Part shown: in pieces, positions 816 to 59,924 of the stretch | How the letters are laid out: every line of letters begins with the position of its first letter | How positions within the stretch are numbered: position 1 is the stretch's first letter | Source: Patescibacteria group bacterium | GTDB taxonomy: Bacteria; Patescibacteriota; Patescibacteriia; Magasanikbacterales; UBA922 | DNA: 64,000 nucleotides | Assembly (NCBI GenBank): GCA_041651535.1 | Contig: JBAZIZ010000001.1 | Location: 96,368 to 160,367 of the forward strand | Direction of reading: 5' to 3' | Made by a program: the position numbers and the translations under genes | The notes under the pieces: model-generated | Seen by the model: the letters and a program-made list of their open reading frames with translations, nothing else | Database searches by the model: none | What the model was told of the DNA's origin: nothing

Positions 816-883
816 TCGGCGGTAGCTCAGCGGTACCTGCCTGCCGGTTTACATACCGTTAGGTATGCAGGCAGGGAGCAACC
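816..883 (+). other. partial duplicate of tRNA-Asn 5' portion (positions 1-28) interrupted by a 40-nt hairpin element in the D-loop
   Basis: 816-835 identical to 1152-1171 (TCGGCGGTAGCTCAGCGGTA); 876-883 GAGCAACC matches 1172-1179 GAGCAACT; the 40 nt between them is absent from the intact gene. Confidence 0.6.
836..875 (+). repeat. 40-nt GC-rich nested-hairpin element (CCTGCCTGC-CGGTTTA-CATACC-GTTA-GGTATG-CAGGCAGG)
   Basis: perfect 9-bp outer stem and 6-bp inner stem; a second 40-nt copy with compensatory substitutions at 57989-58028; simpler relative at 47899-47918. Confidence 0.6.
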
Positions 884-892
884 AAATAAAAT

Positions 893-1078
893 ATGTATAA
901 AATATATATTATACAAAGTGAGAAAAATAATTTTTTATATGTAGGGCTAACATCGAATTTAGAAATTCGATTAAAATACCACAATCAAGGTAGAGTATTT
1001 TCAACAAAAGGTTATCGATCATGGAAATTAGTTTACACTGAAGAAGTTGAAACCAGACAAGAAGCAAGAAAAAGATAA
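893..1078 (+). CDS. small GIY-YIG nuclease-domain protein (COG2827/YhbQ-like), interrupted by an in-frame TAA; reading frame continues to 1144
   Basis: YIYIIQS...FLYVGLTSNLEIRLKYHNQG...WKLVYTEE is a GIY-YIG signature; after the TAA at 1076-1078 the same frame reads KYFKSGCGKEFIKNFLYKPAI, restoring the typical ~82-aa length. Confidence 0.6.
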   Translation: MYKIYIIQSEKNNFLYVGLTSNLEIRLKYHNQGRVFSTKGYRSWKLVYTEEVETRQEARKR

Positions 1079-1151
1079 AAATACTTTAAAAGTGGTTGTG
1101 GTAAGGAGTTTATTAAAAACTTTTTATACAAACCAGCAATTTAAAATTTAT

Positions 1152-1524
1152 TCGGCGGTAGCTCAGCGGTAGAGCAACTGGCTGTCGAAATGTGGCAGCT
1201 CTTGATAGAAATATCAGGATGAAAAACGAAGTGAATTGACAGGAAACCTTTTCTCGACTTAGTCGGGATGGTAATCTGCAGCCAAGTCTTAAATTATATC
1301 CCGTTGTAAAGGCGGAAAAATATTGTTTAAGAAAGGTTCAGAGACTATCTCATTTTGAGAGTAGTCTTCCGATATATTATCGGAAGCCGAAGCGCTTCGC
1401 ACCCGTAACGCTCTTGGAAATAAACCAGGTAAATGGCGTGGGTGATAAAATAGTCCAGTCTTTTTTGAAAAAAGAAGAAATAACTGTAACCAGTGGGTCG
1501 TGGGTTCGAGCCCCACTCGCCGAG
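1152..1524 (+). tRNA. tRNA-Asn(GUU) split by a 301-nt group I intron in the anticodon loop (exons 1152-1185 and 1487-1524; 73-nt mature tRNA, no encoded CCA)
   Basis: acceptor TCGGCGG/TCGCCGA pairs 7/7; D arm GCTC-AGCGGTA-GAGC; anticodon stem ACTGG/CCAGT; spliced loop CU-GUU-AA; T arm GTGGG-TTCGAGC-CCCAC; discriminator G. Confidence 0.7.
1186..1486 (+). ncRNA. group I self-splicing intron
   Basis: P1: exon GCUGU pairs intron GCAGC (1195-1199) with U.G at the splice site; P/Q/R/S-like elements AATTGACAGGAAA (1234-1246), AATCTGCAGCC (1273-1283), GGTTCAGAGACTAT (1335-1348), AAAATAGTCCAG (1448-1459) with the R/S GACTA/TAGTC P7 pairing; intron ends in G1486. Confidence 0.75.
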
Positions 1525-7540: not shown

Positions 7541-10222
7541 CTAAAATTTATTTAAAATATTTCTTGTTAATGGTCCACAATAACCTAAAGCTGGATTAAT
7601 ACCATTAGCTTTTTGAAATTTTATCAAAGCATTTTGAGTTAAACTTCCAAAATATTCTGTTTCATTTCCTTTAGAACCAATTCCTTCATTTACCAAAATA
7701 AAACCAGAATCATTTAAATATTTTTGTAATTTCTTAACATCTTCATCAATCATTCCAAATGATAAATCTTTTGTAAATTTAACATTATTTTTTACTATTT
7801 CAATATTTTGTCCTTCGACAAAATCAATATCCACAATATATATATCTGAAAAATTAAAATTGTAATAATTAAAAGTTTCTTCATCTACAATCCAACGTTT
7901 TTTATTATTTTCTATTTTATATATTTTTGGTGAATTAGAATATTTAACCAATTTACCTTCATAATTTATATTTGTTGTATCAAAATTTTTATTTTTATAA
8001 TTTTCAATAATATAAACATCACTTACTCCACCATCAATACTTCTAAATTTTATATATATTTTCTCTTGGCTATTTTTAAATTTTTCATCATAAGTTTCCC
8101 AAATAGCATTTGAAAAATCTGGTGAATTTGAGATTGCCATCTGATAAGCATTTCGCACTTCTAAATTTGATTTTGAGCTGGAAGAAAAAGATTGTGAAAC
8201 AAAAATTGATGGTAATGAAGACGCAATAAAACTACTATTAGAATTCAAACTAAAAATAGCATTTACTGAAATATTATTAAAAACATTTGTATCTTTTCTT
8301 GGATTTATTTCACTACCATCTGACCAATTTATAAAAGAATATCCTTGATTTGGGATTGCCTCTACAGTTGAAGAATCATCACCATAATTTACAGTTTGCG
8401 CTGCTAAGCCAGAGATTGTGCCACCTGAACCTGCATTATAATTTACAGAAAAAGTTGTCGTCGCACAATTTGCTGTAACTGAAATATTTTCAGAAACATT
8501 TAAATCAGTTCTATCAGTACTTGTCACACCATCTGACCAACTAGTAAAATAATAACCTGTACTAGGAATAACTGAAACTTCCAAAGCATCTTCACCTAAA
8601 TACACTGCTTGTGTTGAAGAACCAGAAATAGTGCCATTTAAGGCTGAATAACTTAAATTATAAAGAGGAACATTCAAATATTCAATTTCAAAATTATCTA
8701 AAATCGGTGTAAAAATCCCATCATCACTTGAAATTGAAACTTGATATTGAGCATATCTTTGTCTATCAGACACACAATTATTTTCGGAAATATCTTCGTC
8801 AGAAGCTCTTGAATCACATAAACTAAAATCAATCGCATCTGACATGTCTAAATTATCAAAAGTTCTAACTTTTACAAAAATTTCAGTATTAGTGGCATCT
8901 GTATAAAAATAAATAAGATCACCAAATTCAACTGGAACTTCAAAATCAAAAATAGAAGAAGTCAAAGATCCAGATAAAGCATAACGTTTTTCTTCATTTT
9001 GTGGCAAAGAAACACTTGGTTCAGAATTAGTATATTTTCTTACAAAGAAAAAAGAATAAGTCGCATAACCAGTTTTAGAAGTGCTATGTGGAGTCAAAAA
9101 TAAAGAAACATATTGGGTACTAGTCACACCCCAAGGCTCTACAGTAGATCCTCGTTGTGTCCAATCTATTCCATTGGCACTAAAAAAACCAGCAATTTGA
9201 TTGGAATTATTTTTACTTAATTTTAAAAATACTGGTAAACTAGCCGAACCACTATTTATTTGTAAATTTGGAGCAATAATTCCATCTTCACACGATCCAT
9301 AACTACAAAGTTCTCCTGATTGCGATTGATATTGAAAAGCCATACCATTTCCCGGAGTAGCCACGATAAAAACTTGTCCGTTACCTACACCAGAATTGAC
9401 TGAATTTTGTACTGTAATACCTGTTTTTGCCCAAGGATCTGAATTATATTGAGAATTTAATAAAGTTTCAGCAATAAAACCACCATCTATAGCTAAATTA
9501 CGATAAACATGAGTAGCTCCATAAACTTTTTGCCAAACATCTTCTCCGTTTGTGTTAGAAATTGACAAAACTCCGCTACCTACAGAAGCTGAACCAGAAG
9601 TTCCAATGTCTTGTTTTAACCAACCAGATGGTAAAGAAGAACCAGAAGTAAAATCAGCAAAAATCGGAAAAACTTCATTTCCATCACTAACTGTATTTGC
9701 TTCGGAATTTCCATAATAAATATAAATATTATCACCAGCTTCTGGTAAAGAAGATAATTTAACCCAAATTTTTGTATTTGTTCCATCGCAAGAATTTATG
9801 GCTGGAGCTGTACTAACCCAAATTGGTAAAATATTTTTTTCTGAATCAACAACTCTAATATCTGCACAATCACTTTGCATTTTTCCAGCATCAATAAGTT
9901 CAGAAGTGTTCAAAAAAATTGGAATTTGGTAATCAGTTAAAACTGAAGCAGAATTATTTTCAATTTCAATTTTTTGGCGATAAAACCAATCAAGATCAAA
10001 CCAATCTTCATTTTCGGCTAAAAAAATACCACTATTTGTAGATGAAACATTTTCAGAAGATAAAAATTTTGTAGAATCTGACCAAAGAGTTTGTGCTGAA
10101 CCCCCACTCCAATCACTTTGTATCCAAGAAGAAAAAGATGAAGAGGCAAAAACAAAATTAACGGACAAAAATCCTGTAATTATTATAAATAAAAATCCCA
10201 ATAAAAATATTTTTCGCTTCAT
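7541..10222 (-). CDS. large secreted surface protein: DUF2341/LamG-like N-terminal region, two Listeria-Bacteroides-type repeat domains, C-terminal PG_binding_1-like domain
   Basis: signal peptide; repeats GTISGSSTQAVYLGEDALEVSVIPSTGYYFTSWSDG and GTISGLAAQTVNYGDDSSTVEAIPNQGYSFINWSDG; C-terminal LQKYLNDSGF...GSLTQNALIKFQKANGI. Confidence 0.65.
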   Translation of the reverse strand: MKRKIFLLGFLFIIITGFLSVNFVFASSSFSSWIQSDWSGGSAQTLWSDSTKFLSSENVSSTNSGIFLAENEDWFDLDWFYRQKIEIENNSASVLTDYQIPIFLNTSELIDAGKMQSDCADIRVVDSEKNILPIWVSTAPAINSCDGTNTKIWVKLSSLPEAGDNIYIYYGNSEANTVSDGNEVFPIFADFTSGSSLPSGWLKQDIGTSGSASVGSGVLSISNTNGEDVWQKVYGATHVYRNLAIDGGFIAETLLNSQYNSDPWAKTGITVQNSVNSGVGNGQVFIVATPGNGMAFQYQSQSGELCSYGSCEDGIIAPNLQINSGSASLPVFLKLSKNNSNQIAGFFSANGIDWTQRGSTVEPWGVTSTQYVSLFLTPHSTSKTGYATYSFFFVRKYTNSEPSVSLPQNEEKRYALSGSLTSSIFDFEVPVEFGDLIYFYTDATNTEIFVKVRTFDNLDMSDAIDFSLCDSRASDEDISENNCVSDRQRYAQYQVSISSDDGIFTPILDNFEIEYLNVPLYNLSYSALNGTISGSSTQAVYLGEDALEVSVIPSTGYYFTSWSDGVTSTDRTDLNVSENISVTANCATTTFSVNYNAGSGGTISGLAAQTVNYGDDSSTVEAIPNQGYSFINWSDGSEINPRKDTNVFNNISVNAIFSLNSNSSFIASSLPSIFVSQSFSSSSKSNLEVRNAYQMAISNSPDFSNAIWETYDEKFKNSQEKIYIKFRSIDGGVSDVYIIENYKNKNFDTTNINYEGKLVKYSNSPKIYKIENNKKRWIVDEETFNYYNFNFSDIYIVDIDFVEGQNIEIVKNNVKFTKDLSFGMIDEDVKKLQKYLNDSGFILVNEGIGSKGNETEYFGSLTQNALIKFQKANGINPALGYCGPLTRNILNKF

Positions 10223-22585: not shown

Positions 22586-22637
22586 AAAACCCCAGACCAG
22601 CCGGACCTTGCGGTCCTATATTTGTTTCCAAATATAA

Positions 22638-22682
22638 CTCGTTGAAAAGTCGCTGATCTTGGGGATCAGTATTTTCAACGAG
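22638..22682. other. nested palindrome CTCGTTGAAAA-[CTGATC ttgggg GATCAG]-TTTTCAACGAG; candidate att core or operator for the adjacent serine recombinase
   Basis: perfect 11-bp outer inverted repeat enclosing a 6-bp inner one; in the divergent intergenic region upstream of the recombinase; further small palindromes nearby (CTCATAAA..TTTATGAG, GACGCGTC). Confidence 0.3.
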
Positions 22683-22913
22683 GTTTCATACCATGCTCAT
22701 AAAAATTTATGAGTTTAGGTATCTGGTATTATCCAGTGTTAATTGTAATTACATTTTAACTTAAAAAAGCTAAAATGTCCAATTTAATAATAGCTTAGAT
22801 ATTGATTTTTGCGAAGTCTAGTTACCAACAGTTTACCTACTTCCCTACTGGACGACAGGAACGGGACGCGTCATTAATGTAAGTAATAAGATAATAATTT
22901 TTAATTTAATATC

Positions 22914-24206
22914 ATGGAACAAGAACAAGACAATCTTCAAGAAAAAGTCCGTTATTGCCTATATGCTAGAAAAAGTACAGAGCAAGATGAACTTCAAGCA
23001 TTATCAATAGATTCTCAAATCAAAGAAATGCTTGATATGGCTAATAAGGAAGGCATGAATATAGTAGAGATAAGAAAAGAAAGCCATTCGGCTAAAGATT
23101 CAGGGCAAAGACCAGTATTCAATCAACTACTCATGGATATAAAGAAAGGAATGTTTAATGGTATTTTATGTTGGGCACCTGATAGATTAAGTAGAAATGC
23201 AGGAGACTTAGGTTCAACAGTAGATTTAATAGATCAAGGTCATTTGTTAGAAATACGAACACACAGTCAAAAATTTACCAATAATCCAAATGAAAAATTT
23301 CTTCTCATGATCTTAGGTAGTCAAGCTAAATTAGAAAATGACCATAAAGGCGAAAATGTAAAACGTGGACTTAGAGCAAAATGTGAACAAGGCTGGCGAC
23401 CTGGCTTACCTCCTCTTGGATATTGGCATGATAAATATGCTAACAAAGGTCAAAAGAAAGTTTTTATAGATACTGAAAGAGCTCCTCATATAAAAAAGAT
23501 GTTTGAGCTAGTGGCTTATGAAAATTATAGTGGTAGAGATTTAGATATATGGCTAAGAAAAAATAATGTAAAAACTAAAAAAGGTAAAAACTTTACTTTA
23601 AGTATGGTTTATAGAATATTAGCTGAACGATTCTATTATGGAGATTTTGAATATCCTGTTGGTAGTGGAAAAATATATAAAGGATCACATGAACCTATAA
23701 TATCAAAAGAGCTTTTTATGAAAACAAGAGAAAACTTAACAGTAGCACCAAGAAGGCATCCTGGAACAATAGATTATGCTTTTACTAGATTATTTTATTG
23801 TGGAAAATGTGGTTCTGGAATATCAGCTGAAGAAAAATTTAAACATCAAAAAAACGGTACAGTTCATAGGTATGTCTATTATCACTGCACCAGAGGTAAG
23901 GACAGAAACTGTAAAGAAAAAGCAATTCGTGAAGAAGATTTGATCAAGCAAATGGTTAACCTGATTGATAAGATCGAAGTGGACCAATTAAAAATTGGCG
24001 AAAAAGTGAAAGCTGAAATGGATAGATTTAGGAAGTTTAGTTCTATGCTAGGACAAACCGCTGAACAGCTCAAAAATGTTAACCTAGATGCGAGAAACTA
24101 TGCCAAGTATATTCTTTTGGAAGGAAGTAAAGAGGAAAAAAGAGAGTTATTGGAGTGTATGAGAGGAAAAGTAGTATTGAAGAATAAGGAATTATTTGTT
24201 AAATAA
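22914..24206 (+). CDS. large serine recombinase (phage-type integrase)
   Basis: N-terminal resolvase domain with catalytic YARKSTEQD; recombinase domain; Cys-rich zinc ribbon CGKCGSG...YYHCTRGKDRNC. Confidence 0.85.
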   Translation: MEQEQDNLQEKVRYCLYARKSTEQDELQALSIDSQIKEMLDMANKEGMNIVEIRKESHSAKDSGQRPVFNQLLMDIKKGMFNGILCWAPDRLSRNAGDLGSTVDLIDQGHLLEIRTHSQKFTNNPNEKFLLMILGSQAKLENDHKGENVKRGLRAKCEQGWRPGLPPLGYWHDKYANKGQKKVFIDTERAPHIKKMFELVAYENYSGRDLDIWLRKNNVKTKKGKNFTLSMVYRILAERFYYGDFEYPVGSGKIYKGSHEPIISKELFMKTRENLTVAPRRHPGTIDYAFTRLFYCGKCGSGISAEEKFKHQKNGTVHRYVYYHCTRGKDRNCKEKAIREEDLIKQMVNLIDKIEVDQLKIGEKVKAEMDRFRKFSSMLGQTAEQLKNVNLDARNYAKYILLEGSKEEKRELLECMRGKVVLKNKELFVK

Positions 24207-35039: not shown

Positions 35040-35043
35040 CTGC

Positions 35044-35114
35044 TCGGGGACAGGGATTCGAACCCCGATAGCCAGGACCAAAACCTGGAGTCCTACCGTT
35101 AGACGATCCCCGAA
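35044..35114 (-). tRNA. tRNA-Gln(UUG)
   Basis: reverse complement TCGGGGA-TC-GTCT-AACGGTA-GGAC-T-CCAGG-TTTTGGT-CCTGG-CTAT-CGGGG-TTCGAAT-CCCTG-TCCCCGA-G; U1:A72 as in many tRNA-Gln; anticodon UUG. Confidence 0.8.
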
Positions 35115-35594
35115 TATTGTATATATTATTAAATTGTAATTTTCACAAAACTCACATGTTTGTTTACATACCGTTAGACCCGTCCGCCATGGCTTCGCCG
35201 TAGGCGTGCCGGGCGGGCGATCCCCGAATATTGTATATATTATTAAATTGTAATTTTCACAAAACTCACATGTTTGTTTACATACCGTTAGACCCGTCCG
35301 CCATGGCTTCGCCGTAGGCGTGCCGGGCGGGCAATCCCCGAATATTGTATATATTATTAAATTGTAATTTTCACAAAACTCACATGTTTGTTTACATACC
35401 GTTAGACCCGTCCGCCATGGCTTCGCCGTAGGCGTGCCGGGCGGGCGATCCCCGAATATTGTATATATTATTAAATTGTAAATTTCACAAAACTCACATG
35501 TTTGTTTACATACCGTTAGACCCGTCCGCCATGGCTTCGCCGTAGGCGTGCCGGGCGGGCGATCCCCGAATATTGTATTTTAACAAAAAATTAT
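35115..35594. repeat. four tandem copies of a 120-bp unit, each ending in the tRNA-Gln 5' end (positions 1-10)
   Basis: units at 35115-35234, 35235-35354, 35355-35474, 35475-35594 are near-identical; on the tRNA strand each reads tRNA[1-10] + 39-nt GC-rich segment + tRNA[11-20] + AT-rich tail; the trailing copy is truncated. Confidence 0.8.
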
Positions 35595-57242: not shown

Positions 57243-57311
57243 AACTATTTAATATAAACTAATAAAAACAGTCTCGCAAAGACTGTTTTGTATTTTAGAA
57301 AATAAAAAAAG

Positions 57312-57390
57312 CCGTCTTCTCTTTTCTCTCCATTTTTTTATATTAAGGAGGGAAAAAATGTCTCTTCGTAGAGGAAAAGAGAAAGACGGC
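57312..57390 (+). other. ~18-bp inverted repeat (GCCGTCTTCTCTTTTC / GAAAAGAGAAAGACGGC) enclosing an AAGGAGGG RBS and the start of a 27-codon mini-ORF (MSLRRGKEKDGCVWCGWLKYLKNGEFTK)
   Basis: arms at 57312-57332 and 57372-57390; ATG at 57358; candidate regulatory hairpin or small-protein gene. Confidence 0.25.
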
Positions 57391-57700
57391 TGTGTCTGGT
57401 GTGGTTGGCTTAAATATTTAAAGAACGGAGAGTTCACAAAATGACAAGCCACCACAACCAAACATAACTTATAATGACACACTTCTCTTTTTTTGTCAAG
57501 AGCTTACAATTATATTTTATTTTAAAACTAAATATGTTATAATATATTCTGTTAATTTAATTAAAGAAAAACTTGACTTATTTATTATTTTGTTATATTA
57601 TATTAGCGTTATTATTTTAATAATTGACTGAAAGCTCAGTTGTAAACGTCTCGACGATACGTCGGAAAAGGTCCTGATTAATTATAAAAAATTTTAAAAT

Positions 57701-57773
57701 GGTCTGGTAGCTCAGTCGGTAGAGCAGCTGCCTTTTAAGCAGAAGGTCCTGGGTTCGAATCCCAGCCGGATCA
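57701..57773 (+). tRNA. tRNA-Lys(UUU)
   Basis: GGTCTGG-TA-GCTC-AGTCGGTA-GAGC-A-GCTGC-CTTTTAA-GCAGA-AGGTC-CTGGG-TTCGAAT-CCCAG-CCGGATC-A. Confidence 0.85.
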
Positions 57774-57781
57774 CAAGATAA

Positions 57782-57813
57782 AAATCACTTATTTAAAGTG
57801 ATTTTGTTTTTTT
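57782..57813 (+). terminator. AT-rich hairpin AAATCACTT / AAGTGATTT + T-run (tRNA-Lys terminator; repeated in each 115-bp unit)
   Basis: 9-bp stem followed by TTTTGTTTTTTT. Confidence 0.45.
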
Positions 57814-57988
57814 AATAAAGATTTTCAATTTAGAGCAGTCCCGACGATACGTCGGGAAAGGTCCTGGGTTCGAATCCCAGCCGGATCACAAGACAAAAAT
57901 CACTTATTTAAAGTGATTTTGTTTTTTTAATAAAGATTTTCAATTTAGAGCAGTCCCGACGATACGTCGGAAAAGGTCCTGTGGTTCG

Positions 57989-58028
57989 CCTGCCTGTCGG
58001 TTTATATGCCGTTAGGCATGTAGGCAGG
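57989..58028 (+). repeat. second 40-nt nested-hairpin element CCTGCCTG-TCGGTTTAT-ATGCC-GTTA-GGCAT-GTAGGCAGG
   Basis: same length and architecture as 836-875; inner stem changed CATACC/GGTATG to ATGCC/GGCAT (compensatory); inserted between TTCG and AATCC of the T-loop. Confidence 0.6.
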
Positions 58029-58127
58029 AATCCCAGCCGGATCACAAGACAAAAATCACTTATTTAAAGTGATTTTGTTTTTTTAAATAAAATTACAAAA
58101 ATAAAAAAATCGTTTTTAAACGATTTT

Positions 58128-59924
58128 TTAATCTTTGTTTTTAACACGACCAGCTTTGACTCGGTCATTTTCTGTTAAATATTTTTTTCTTATTCTGACA
58201 TTTTTTGGAGTAATTTCTAAATATTCATCTTCAGCTATTATTTCCAAACCAAGTTCTAAAGTTAATTCAATTGGTGGGGTAAGTTGAATAGCGATGTCTG
58301 CAGTTGAAGAACGAGTATTTGTTAAATGTTTACCTTTGATAGGATTAACTGTCATATCCATTCCTTTTGAAGTTATTCCAATAACTTGGCCTTCATAAAC
58401 GTCAACATTTGGTCCAACAAAAAGTGAACCTCGATCTTGTAAATTAGCTAAAGAATAAGCTAAAACTTTTCCAGTTTCTCCTGAGATCATAGCTCCAAAA
58501 TCATGTTTATCTATTTCTCCAACATAAGGTTTAAAACCTATCATTTCACTACATAAAATTCCTTCGCCTCTAGTATCAATAATAAATTCATTACGATAAC
58601 CGAGTATTCCTCTGGTTGGAATTTGGAAAACAAGACGAACATGATTGTTTTCTGGATGCATTGAAATCATTTGTCCTTTTCTTTTAGATATTTTTTCTAT
58701 GATAGCTCCTGAACATTCCTGTGGAATATCAATAGTTAATTCTTCAAAAGGTTCACACTTTATTCCATCAATTTCTTTGATAATAACTTGTGGTTGAGAT
58801 ACTTGTAATTCAAAACCTTCACGTCGCATATTTTCAAGTAAGATGGCAATATGCAATTCTCCCCTACCAAAAACTTTATAATACTCAGTTTCTGAAAAAT
58901 CTATTTTTAAACCTACATTTACTTCTAATTCTTTTTCCAATCTTTCTTTTATTTGGCGACTGGTCACAAATTTTCCTTCTCTACCAGCAAAAGTAGAATT
59001 GTTTACTAAAAAATTTAAAGATATTGTTGGATCATCAATTTTGATTGCAGGTAAAAGTGTTTGTTCTTTATCAACACAAACAGTATCGCCAATATAAATA
59101 TCAGATAAACCAGAAATCATTACTATATCACCAGCACTTACTTCTGAAACTTCTTTGCGAGTCATACCTTCAAAAGTAAATAATTTTGTTATTGTACCTG
59201 AAGAAATTTCTTCGTTTTGTTTTTTAGCAAAAATTTTTTCACCTGTTTTTATTTTTCCTTGATAAACTCTGCCAATACCCATACGTCCAAGATAATTATC
59301 ATAAGCCAAATTAAAAGGTTGGAAAATAAATGGTAATTCAACATCAGCTTTTACTGGTGGCACAACTCGTAAAATAGTATCAAGCAAAGGATCTAAATTA
59401 TTTGATTCATCATTTAAATTCATTTTTGCTATTCCTTGTTTAGCAATAGCATAAACAGTTGTAAAATTTAATTGTTCGTCATTTGCTCCTAAATCCATAA
59501 ATAATTCTAAAATTTTTTCATGAGTCCATTCAGGACGAGCAGCTGGTTTATCAATTTTATTTATAACAACAATTGGTTTTAAACCAAGTTCCAAAGATTT
59601 TCGTAAAACAAATTTTGTTTGTGGCATTGGTCCTTCTTGAGCGTCAACAACTAACAAAACTGAATCAATCGAACGTAAAACACGTTCGACTTCAGAACCA
59701 AAATCAGCGTGTCCAGGAGTGTCAACTATATTTATTTTTGTGTCTTTGTAAAACACTGAAGTATTTTTTGAATAAATTGTGATACCACGTTCTTTTTCTA
59801 AATCATTTGAATCCATGCTTACATCTTCATCTTTTATCATACCAGTTTGACGCATAAGAGCATCAGTAAGTTTTGTCTTGCCATGATCAACGTGGGCAAT
59901 TATAGCTATATTTCTAATCTCCAT
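58128..59924 (-). CDS. typA: translational GTPase TypA/BipA
   Basis: [15 protein letters not shown]1 motif, DTPGHADF G3, NKIDK G4; BipA C-terminal domain. Confidence 0.9.

Follow-up and report, generated by a model that had tools for sequence, protein, structure and literature searches.

Direct repeats of part of a tRNA gene beside the intact gene are the signature of integrative elements that use a tyrosine integrase: the tRNA gene stays intact and a leftover partial copy remains next to it (attL/attR). The stretch of DNA analysed here, 64,000 nucleotides (nt) of a metagenome-assembled Patescibacteria genome with a GC content of about 27% (the window), contains a tRNA-Lys gene beside which partial copies of this kind are stacked in a tandem array, and the original prediction, made from the sequence alone, had likened the array to attL/attR scars. 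We find a real rearrangement of a tRNA gene, in a variant that we have not found described. The additional copies are pseudo-tRNAs interrupted by palindromes, and partial copies marked in this way recur at the other tRNA loci of the window and in related bacteria, where very small genes of the GIY-YIG nuclease family adjoin the tRNA genes. Coordinates are positions within the window, and L-numbers denote loci of other genomes or contigs.

GC-rich palindromic elements in AT-rich genomes include the GC clusters of yeast mitochondria, the Rickettsia palindromic elements and the repetitive extragenic palindromic (REP) sequences of bacteria. The hairpin elements of sponge mitochondria are a further dispersed system (PMC2800124). 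In Patescibacteria, group I introns of tRNA-Asn and tRNA-Asp have recently been described as a class, in an account that mentions no tRNA fragments, palindromes or GIY-YIG genes (PMC13011429). In phages T4 and T6, SegB is a free-standing GIY-YIG homing endonuclease encoded in a tRNA gene cluster (PMC2330249, PMC13096335). The T6 enzyme cuts inside tRNA genes at the motif RAWTSGAAC, the reverse complement of the T-loop sequence GTTCSAWTY, and drives a recombination-dependent tandem segmental amplification of the tRNA region; truncation of its C-terminal part abolishes toxicity (PMC13096335).

A tandem array of palindrome-bearing pseudo-tRNAs

The repetition begins within the intact tRNA-Lys gene, at tRNA position 43 (57743), and continues head to tail with a period of 115 nt (Table 1). 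Tandem Repeats Finder (TRF) reports it over 57743–57988 as 2.1 copies with 97% matches and a score of 469. A repeat search gives 98% identity between the first two units, which differ at two bases, and finds the third copy interrupted. Unit 3 is identical to unit 2 apart from one additional T and a 40-nt insertion that splits the T-loop between GGTTCG and AATCCC. The original prediction of a tRNA-Lys 3′ end that occurs three times with its AT-rich hairpin, the intact gene supplying one of the three, and of a 40-nt hairpin inserted in the last copy, is borne out. The tRNA part common to all units comprises the last 32 nt of the tRNA (57743–57774), one more than had been counted.

The order within a unit is the 32-nt tRNA 3′ portion, an AT-rich hairpin with a T-run, a short spacer, TAGAGCAG and a palindrome. 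TAGAGCAG corresponds to tRNA positions 20–27 and closely precedes the palindrome, CCCGACGATACGTCGG(G/A), which stands where the 15-nt anticodon arm would be. Because the units also hold TAGAGCAG, the extra copies are not the bare 3′ ends that had been proposed but pseudo-tRNAs: read across the unit borders, they span positions ~20–76 and have their anticodon arm swapped for CCCGACGATACGTCGGG. These copies do not pass as functional tRNAs, as the tRNA model scores copy 2 at 18.8 bits over 57800–57888 against an Rfam gathering threshold of 29 bits, and ARAGORN calls a single tRNA-Lys. The sequence CGACGATACGTCGG is present three times (57652, 57842 and 57957) and in 0 of 100 shuffles. Copies 1 and 2 each come with the palindrome, as had been stated for every copy, but the third copy is preceded and not followed by one. 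Similarly, every unit does have a hairpin with a T-run, but these supposed terminators contain just two G–C pairs and fail a consensus terminator scan (too AT-rich).

A further piece of the unit, ψ0, lies upstream of the gene. Of the partial unit that had been placed there (57641–57680), a stretch of 29 nt is firm (57648–57676); it is 93–97% identical to the unit, consists of the palindrome plus AAAGGTCCTG and sits 25 nt 5′ of tRNA-Lys. The parts of ψ0 are a weak D-arm remnant, GCTCAGTTGTAAAC, aligned by eye alone, the palindrome CGACGATACGTCGG (57652–57665) and AAGGTCCTG (57668–57676). To judge from its position, the sigma-70-like promoter upstream of ψ0 would make one precursor of the ψ0 fragment and tRNA-Lys. 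An older full unit 5′ of ψ0 was considered and rejected: the segment 57564–57647 resembles the unit weakly, and 21 of 500 shuffles reach at least the same score.

In the whole 64 kb, a TRF score of at least 80 is reached by two tandem arrays only, those at tRNA-Lys and tRNA-Gln, and both abut tRNA genes.

Table 1 Features of the tRNA-Lys locus and of the other tRNA loci of the window
Feature	Position	Strand	Details
Sigma-70-like promoter	57573–57601	+	TTGACT-17-TATTAT; 10/12 consensus matches
Pseudo-tRNA-Lys 5′ fragment ψ0	57634–57676	+	Upstream; ends where the T-stem begins
Intact tRNA-Lys(UUU)	57701–57773	+	ARAGORN and Rfam (end 57773/4); 70.8 bits; full-length cloverleaf
Repeat unit 1	57743–57857	+	tRNA positions 43–76; terminator-like hairpin with T-run 57780–57813; TAGAGCAG 57831–57838; palindrome CCCGACGATACGTCGGG 57840–57856
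Pseudo-tRNA ψ1	57831–57889	+	57831–57857 joined to unit 2
Repeat unit 2	57858–57972	+	Terminator-like hairpin 57895–57928; TAGAGCAG 57946–57953; palindrome 57955–57970
Pseudo-tRNA ψ2		+	57946–57972 joined to unit 3
Repeat unit 3	57973–58084	+	Additional T (~57982); 40-nt hairpin in T-loop; terminator-like hairpin 58051–58084
40-nt GC-rich hairpin	57989–58028	+	CCTGCCTGTCGGTTTATATGCCGTTAGGCATGTAGGCAGG; −19.6 kcal/mol, z = −3.6
tRNA-Asn 5′ fragment	816–882	+	tRNA positions 1–20, 40-nt family hairpin (836–875), GAGCAAC (positions 21–27)
Small GIY-YIG nuclease gene, probable pseudogene	893–1144	+	83-codon open reading frame (ORF); PF01541, E = 8e-15
Intact tRNA-Asn(GUU)	1152–1524		Intron of ~301 nt (1186–1486) between anticodon positions 35 and 36
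tRNA-Gln array	35104–35578	−	4.2 × 114 nt, upstream of tRNA-Gln
tRNA-Gln(UUG)	35042–35113	−	

A covarying hairpin family with a 20-nt core

The insertion in unit 3 and the hairpin in the tRNA-Asn fragment both fold at about −20 kcal/mol. Both also have the features by which we define a family of 40-nt CCTGCC...GGCAGG hairpins, namely an outer stem CCTGCCTG/CAGGCAGG, a bulge CGGTTTA and a 6-bp inner stem closing a GTTA loop. They differ from one another at five positions and their stems stay paired: there is one change from A–U to G–C on both sides, and the others are G–U wobbles. A metagenome scan in which the outer parts were fixed and the inner stem was left free yielded 16 further hairpin loci. 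The inner stem covaries (CAUACC/GGUAUG, CCCGCC/GGCGGG, CCCACC/GGUGGG and CAUGCC/GGCAUG), and three of its pairs are altered on both sides. Pairing extends to 98.4% of cells, a level that none of 500 shuffles attains.

The 40-nt hairpin is a 20-nt core, CCTGCCTGCCGGCAGGCAGG, that carries a 20-nt inner hairpin insert. The core is found in the D-loops of tRNA-Leu, tRNA-Asn and tRNA-Arg fragments, where in most cases it separates GG(N)TA/GGCAGA from the 3′ strand of the D-stem (at position 15/16 in L067); in several CPR lineages (candidate phyla radiation) such fragments immediately precede ~80-aa GIY-YIG genes. IMG/VR contigs of 38–68% GC contain 43 copies of the core in 35 stretches, some copies being flanked by 7–14-nt direct repeats, and the core is identical across hosts of 27% to 68% GC. 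On a high-GC phage-like contig (L097, 2239–2330), a tRNA-Met with the 20-nt palindrome in its variable loop is still called as a 92-nt tRNA. A contig related to L097 (L074, ~8575–8660) has the same palindrome and a deleted T-arm.

Scans of viral sequences for palindromes joined to T-loop or D-loop motifs returned chance matches only, with a D-loop pattern that was one base too long for L104 (described below). The Lys palindrome and unit have no exact match in viral contigs and only 1-mismatch matches, in unrelated places, in the loci of relatives. No Rfam family covers the hairpin, the palindrome or the 115-nt unit. In the literature we found no paper containing the palindrome sequence and, with most subscription journals outside the coverage, nothing on palindromes or GIY-YIG genes at the tRNA genes of the candidate phyla radiation (CPR), and no description of the D-loop placement of the palindrome or of the GIY-YIG–tRNA fragment architecture in Patescibacteria.

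Partial copies at the other tRNA loci of the window

All three tRNA loci of the window (Asn, Gln and Lys) show partial copies marked by palindromes or hairpins, in agreement with the prediction that every tRNA here has a local partial duplication. The tRNA-Asn gene is real and split by its intron. ARAGORN misreads its 3′ part (1439–1525) as tRNA-Ser, and Rfam calls neither a tRNA nor a group I intron at 1152–1524; the gene fits the recently described class of Patescibacteria tRNA-Asn/Asp introns (PMC13011429). Between the palindrome-bearing tRNA-Asn fragment and the intact gene lies a small GIY-YIG ORF with one in-frame TAA (1076–1078) in place of a nearly invariant Glu; it is probably a recent pseudogene.

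Each unit of the tRNA-Gln array comprises a promoter-like leader (TTGTGA-17-TATATA), tRNA positions 1–10, a 38-nt GC hairpin and positions 11–20. The 38-nt hairpins belong to a sequence family other than that of the 40-nt Asn and Lys hairpins and, at −26 to −29 kcal/mol, are far more stable than any other GC-rich island in the scan (−13.7 kcal/mol or weaker). The periods of the Gln array (114 nt), the Lys array (115 nt) and the tRNA-Asn array of L001 (120 nt; see below) are nearly equal.

GIY-YIG genes and partial tRNA copies in related bacteria

In 32 TypA-anchored CPR loci, selected regardless of tRNAs, a partial self-copy lies within 320 nt of 6 of the 15 tRNAs, and by inspection these self-copies abut GC-rich hairpins. 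A comparison with related genomes, which the original prediction had called for, shows that partial tRNA self-copies recur, but it offers no direct counterpart of the locus: the TypA relatives from 42 genomes include no case of tRNA-Lys next to typA and no match to the 3′ end of tRNA-Lys, and so no empty site.

Two of the related loci are of the 3′ type seen at tRNA-Lys. In L042 an intact tRNA-Gln is followed by a terminator, hairpins and then a copy that starts at \|AATCCC, the same T-loop break as in Lys copy 3, and in L015 a tRNA-Asp copy begins in the T-loop, after a terminator and hairpins. Other loci have 5′ fragments. In L041 a tRNA-Trp 5′ fragment with a 25-nt hairpin in its anticodon loop is followed by an intact GIY-YIG gene and then the tRNA. 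Upstream of the intact gene, L051 (tRNA-Arg) and L055 (tRNA-Leu) each have a 5′ fragment whose D-loop contains a hairpin of the 40-nt family, and L055 has an intact 81-aa GIY-YIG gene between the fragment and the intact tRNA-Leu. The contigs that encode homologues of the L055 protein all have the order promoter, tRNA-Leu 5′ fragment, GIY-YIG gene and intact tRNA-Leu, and their 5′ fragments carry the perfect 20-nt palindrome CCTGCCTGCCGGCAGGCAGG in the D-loop. L104, one of the IMG/VR stretches with the core, has a tRNA-Asn fragment, a GIY-YIG gene and an intron-bearing tRNA-Asn, the same design as window positions 816–1524.

No identical TypA protein is on record, and the product of an ORF near the array matches a protein of a Patescibacteria metagenome-assembled genome at 100% over the aligned 90% of the query. 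The nearest TypA proteins are those of Candidatus Magasanikbacteria and other Patescibacteria, and the closest relative (L001, TypA 85% identical, the best identity found) has a 120-nt × 2.7 array beside an intact GIY-YIG gene. The unit of this array contains a leader, tRNA-Asn positions 1–21, a palindrome and positions 22–33. The order over 226–990 of L001 is a GIY-YIG 3′-end remnant, a palindrome-bearing tRNA fragment, the intact GIY-YIG gene (396–641), the array and an intron-bearing tRNA-Asn; evidently the entire gene-plus-fragment unit has been duplicated. In L059 and L060 the 3′ remainder of the palindrome-bearing tRNA-Leu is kept downstream of the new tRNA-Leu, so that ~55 nt including the palindrome stand on both flanks of the cassette. 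The Lys locus shares this topology, with the order ψ0, intact tRNA and ψ1.

The linkage of the nuclease genes to tRNA genes is very tight: in the CPR loci examined, all GIY-YIG ORFs of the family (13/13) are followed, within 17 nt of their end, by a tRNA gene in the same orientation. Positions characteristic of GIY-YIG proteins (Tyr, Tyr-x-Gly, Arg, His and Glu) are conserved in the family. Where the related loci have cargo, it is this ~80-aa nuclease gene and no integrase. The break points of the tRNA fragments cluster where the D-loop ends on its 3′ side (Asn, Arg, Leu and Gln, and the Lys unit border at 19/20), in the anticodon loop and in the T-loop at TTCG\|AAT.

At the tRNA-Arg(UCU) locus L043 (480–850) the debris is nested: imperfect inverted GC-rich repeats flank the intact tRNA and interrupt an older copy of tRNA-Arg at anticodon position 35/36. 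Two more 5′ fragments there, one in opposite orientation, contain the 20-nt or the 40-nt hairpin in their D-loops. In L066 (1515–1653), a 56-nt × 2.5 tandem repeat immediately follows the GIY-YIG-linked tRNA-Leu and precedes a gene of the phage-integrase family.

Comparison with described systems

SegB-driven amplification is the closest experimental precedent for the process that we propose. The likeness consists of a GIY-YIG gene beside tRNA genes and an outcome of tandem amplification; SegB cuts at a T-loop-like motif, and the break points here recur in the D-loop and T-loop. The CPR proteins, however, are of ~80 aa, contain the catalytic domain only and are UPF0213-like, whereas SegB has ~220 aa; fragments are amplified here and whole tRNAs there, in a cellular and a phage genome, respectively; and palindromes are no part of the SegB system. 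A nuclease gene at the amplified unit is absent at Lys, present as a pseudogene at the tRNA-Asn of the window and intact beside the L001 Asn array. At E ≤ 1e-3, the phage matches of the GIY-YIG proteins are only to Rhizobium phage, where the gene does not adjoin tRNAs, and to one GIY-YIG gene of an uncultured phage. With no T4 or T6 record among these matches, homology to SegB past the shared GIY-YIG domain is not established.

As in the GC-rich palindrome systems, short hairpin inserts are scattered here through an AT-rich compact genome, can lie inside RNA genes and are associated with local rearrangements. In contrast to those systems, the 20-nt core recurs at the junction of D-loop and D-stem in fragments of several tRNA species, is identical across hosts and is tightly linked to a GIY-YIG gene. 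The Patescibacteria tRNA-intron system concerns the same lineage and the same gene, the tRNA-Asn of the window with its intron at position 35/36 (PMC13011429), and the free-standing nuclease gene beside an intron-bearing tRNA in the window, L001 and L104 resembles collaborative homing. The Lys locus, by contrast, is intronless.

Genomic setting

The neighbours of the Lys array are housekeeping genes: a convergent typA/bipA (58128–59924), the ATP synthase operon, and genes for PadR and PspC. Between a 357-aa ORF and the tRNA-Lys promoter lies a long inverted repeat (AGCCGTCTTCTCTTTTCTCT / AGAGGAAAAGAGAAAGACGGCT; 57311–57442) within which lie a GGAGGG ribosome-binding site and the beginning of a 27-codon ORF (MSLRRGKEKDGCVWCGWLKYLKNGEFTK, 57359–57442). 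An independent Logan contig from run SRR8542065 ends at ~57737, 6 nt short of the start of the repeat, and the contigs that carry ATP synthase epsilon do not extend as far as the array.

The sole recombinase of the window is a large serine recombinase (22914–24206, +) 34 kb from the array. It lies in a separate defence/phage-like island (~10.4–31.4 kb) that also encodes GmrSD-HNH, AIPR, an EcoRI-type methylase, a ParB-methylase, small and large terminase subunits, SNase, an Eco57I-like methylase and an SNF2-PLD helicase. In the same island, a LOOT RNA (RF03000, 92.8 bits; 22603–22721, −) lies ~190 nt from the divergent serine recombinase gene.

Origin of the array

We start from the anatomy of the locus, its recurrence at other loci and in other genomes, the covariation of the hairpin family and the tight linkage of GIY-YIG genes to tRNA genes. 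The reading that we favour, and to which we give about even weight, is that the tRNA gene was broken and repaired by recombination again and again, that this left the tRNA-Lys locus as a mosaic, and that the process is tied to palindromes and GIY-YIG genes. Two selfish components would be involved, GC-rich palindromes that end up in the loops of tRNA genes and very small GIY-YIG genes placed immediately before tRNA genes. Double-strand breaks would arise in the DNA of tRNA genes through the GIY-YIG nuclease and/or at extruded palindromes, and their repair by unequal homologous recombination or template switching would produce segmental duplications. Redundant pieces would be, or become, interrupted by palindromes, and the units would then expand as tandem arrays.

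For tRNA-Lys, we infer the following order of events from the structure of the units. A segment that begins at the 3′ limit of the D-loop (position ~20) and reaches about 50 nt past the tRNA would have been duplicated beside the functional gene. In the redundant copy CCCGACGATACGTCGGG would then have replaced the anticodon arm, which gave a dead pseudo-tRNA; ψ0 would be the upstream survivor, a 5′ piece of such a palindrome-bearing copy. The 115-nt unit would next have been amplified by unequal homologous recombination or slippage, and the 40-nt hairpin would later have entered the T-loop of the last copy. Breakage and repair of this kind would be common in this Patescibacteria lineage. Most likely the array itself has no selected function; a by-product of it is a set of three stacked terminator-like hairpins that face the convergent typA.

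A more specific proposal, which we make tentatively and with less confidence, is that the Lys array is the footprint of a mobile system that we have not found described, consisting of an ~80-aa GIY-YIG nuclease and a palindrome (core CCTGCCTGCCGGCAGGCAGG) that target the D-loop and T-loop segments, universally conserved, of tRNA genes. Small cassettes may be inserted or copied and the tRNA rebuilt, with palindrome-disabled fragments and arrays of ~115–120 nt left behind. Such a system may be widespread in Patescibacteria, and its palindrome would also occur in phage-like contigs of unrelated GC content.

Several findings weigh against the breakage-and-repair reading. The Lys array neither contains nor adjoins a GIY-YIG gene or a remnant of one, and the sole copy in the window is a pseudogene. 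The units are 97–100% identical, so that plain slippage without a nuclease could have built the array. The direct repeats that flank palindromes vary from 0 to 14 nt, and the Lys palindrome itself is matched nowhere else that was searched and falls outside the 40-nt family. The non-CPR control for duplication frequency held one tRNA and is inadequate for comparison. The nearest solved relatives of the ~80-aa proteins are uncharacterized UPF0213 proteins, and their nuclease activity and specificity are predicted. A tblastn search of 50,697 phage records (E ≤ 1e-3) matched 11 records, none of them from T4 or T6. Finally, relatives provide no syntenic counterpart, and the independent Logan contig stops before the array.

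Alternative explanations

The alternative that survives best, although we consider it unlikely, is ordinary tandem duplication by slippage or unequal crossing-over, with the palindromes and the 40-nt hairpin as independent later insertions kept in neutral DNA. The units are near-identical, which indicates a recent duplication; the 75 nt by which the tRNA-containing segment differs from the 115-nt unit are flanked by a 9-nt direct repeat, AAGGTCCTG; and pseudo-copies would be among the few neutral landing sites of a compact genome. Yet both high-scoring arrays in the 64 kb sit at tRNAs, with a third in the closest relative, the D-loop and T-loop break points recur across at least five tRNA species and several genomes, and the GIY-YIG genes are very tightly linked to tRNAs. 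Arrays bound to tRNAs, recurrent break points and such a linkage are not expected of random slippage, and they count against it.

We regard it as doubtful that the array is a functional RNA or regulatory DNA, acting as terminators that insulate typA, as stacked promoters that raise tRNA output (in the Gln and L001 Asn arrays), as decoys or as small RNAs. The terminator-like hairpin with a T-run in every Lys unit, the promoter-like sequence in every Gln unit and the tolerance of the hairpin family for G–U pairs on the tRNA-sense strand would suit such a role, as would the adaptive amplification of the tRNA region in T6 (PMC13096335). These features are offset by a Lys unit sequence that is not conserved elsewhere, pseudo-copies without the 5′ strand of the acceptor stem and the anticodon loop, and a hairpin that occurs in either orientation to the tRNA fragment (L043) and in many non-tRNA contexts.

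We judge it very unlikely that the copies are att scars, stacked attL/attR sites left when an element with a tyrosine integrase entered the 3′ half of tRNA-Lys once or more and was later lost. The direct repeat of the tRNA 3′ portion beside the intact gene does fit the signature of such elements, and to this extent the likeness to attL/attR drawn in the original prediction stands. It is only partly right, because both a tyrosine integrase and cargo are absent. When essentially all ORFs of the window with at least 90 aa were scanned against Pfam, no tyrosine integrase (Phage_integrase) came up, only the serine recombinase in its separate island; and no cargo lies beside the tRNA-Lys repeats or, as had been noted, between them. 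The repeat also exceeds a recombination core. Each unit includes ~50 nt of 3′ flank with a terminator-like hairpin, a D-arm piece and a replaced anticodon arm, none of which a reciprocal crossover at a core site predicts, and this counts against att scars, as do break points that lie in loops and abut palindromes. In contrast to integrative elements, the Lys units are only 115 nt long, tandem and interrupted by palindromes, and the same theme appears at sister loci with the 5′ ends of tRNA-Asn and tRNA-Gln. The locus nevertheless works like a tRNA-targeting insertion that rebuilds its target.

An assembly artefact in the number or order of copies is scarcely credible, for although the source is a metagenome-assembled genome and the independent Logan contig breaks beside the repeat, point changes distinguish the copies and only the last has the insertion, typical reads are longer than the 115-nt period, assemblers usually collapse tandem repeats rather than create them, and comparable arrays are present in other genomes that were assembled independently. 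We also considered and rejected split or permuted tRNA genes, since matching halves are absent, CRISPR-like arrays, since there are no variable spacers, and archaeal-type tRNA introns, since only non-functional copies carry the hairpins.

Implications for Patescibacteria

Patescibacteria have tiny genomes, usually with one gene per tRNA, so the repeated breaking and rebuilding of tRNA genes touches essential functions. Even if the link between palindromes, GIY-YIG genes and tRNA fragments should not be causal, the locus clearly illustrates that partial duplications of tRNAs need not mean integrase-type islands. If the link is causal, palindrome and nuclease gene would represent a new class of tRNA-gene parasites or homing cassettes, one that would account for tRNA pseudo-fragments and missed tRNA calls in the annotation of CPR genomes. 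It would also give a counterpart in cells to the amplification that SegB was recently shown to drive in phage T6, and would provide a compact pair of nuclease and DNA site that is open to biochemistry.

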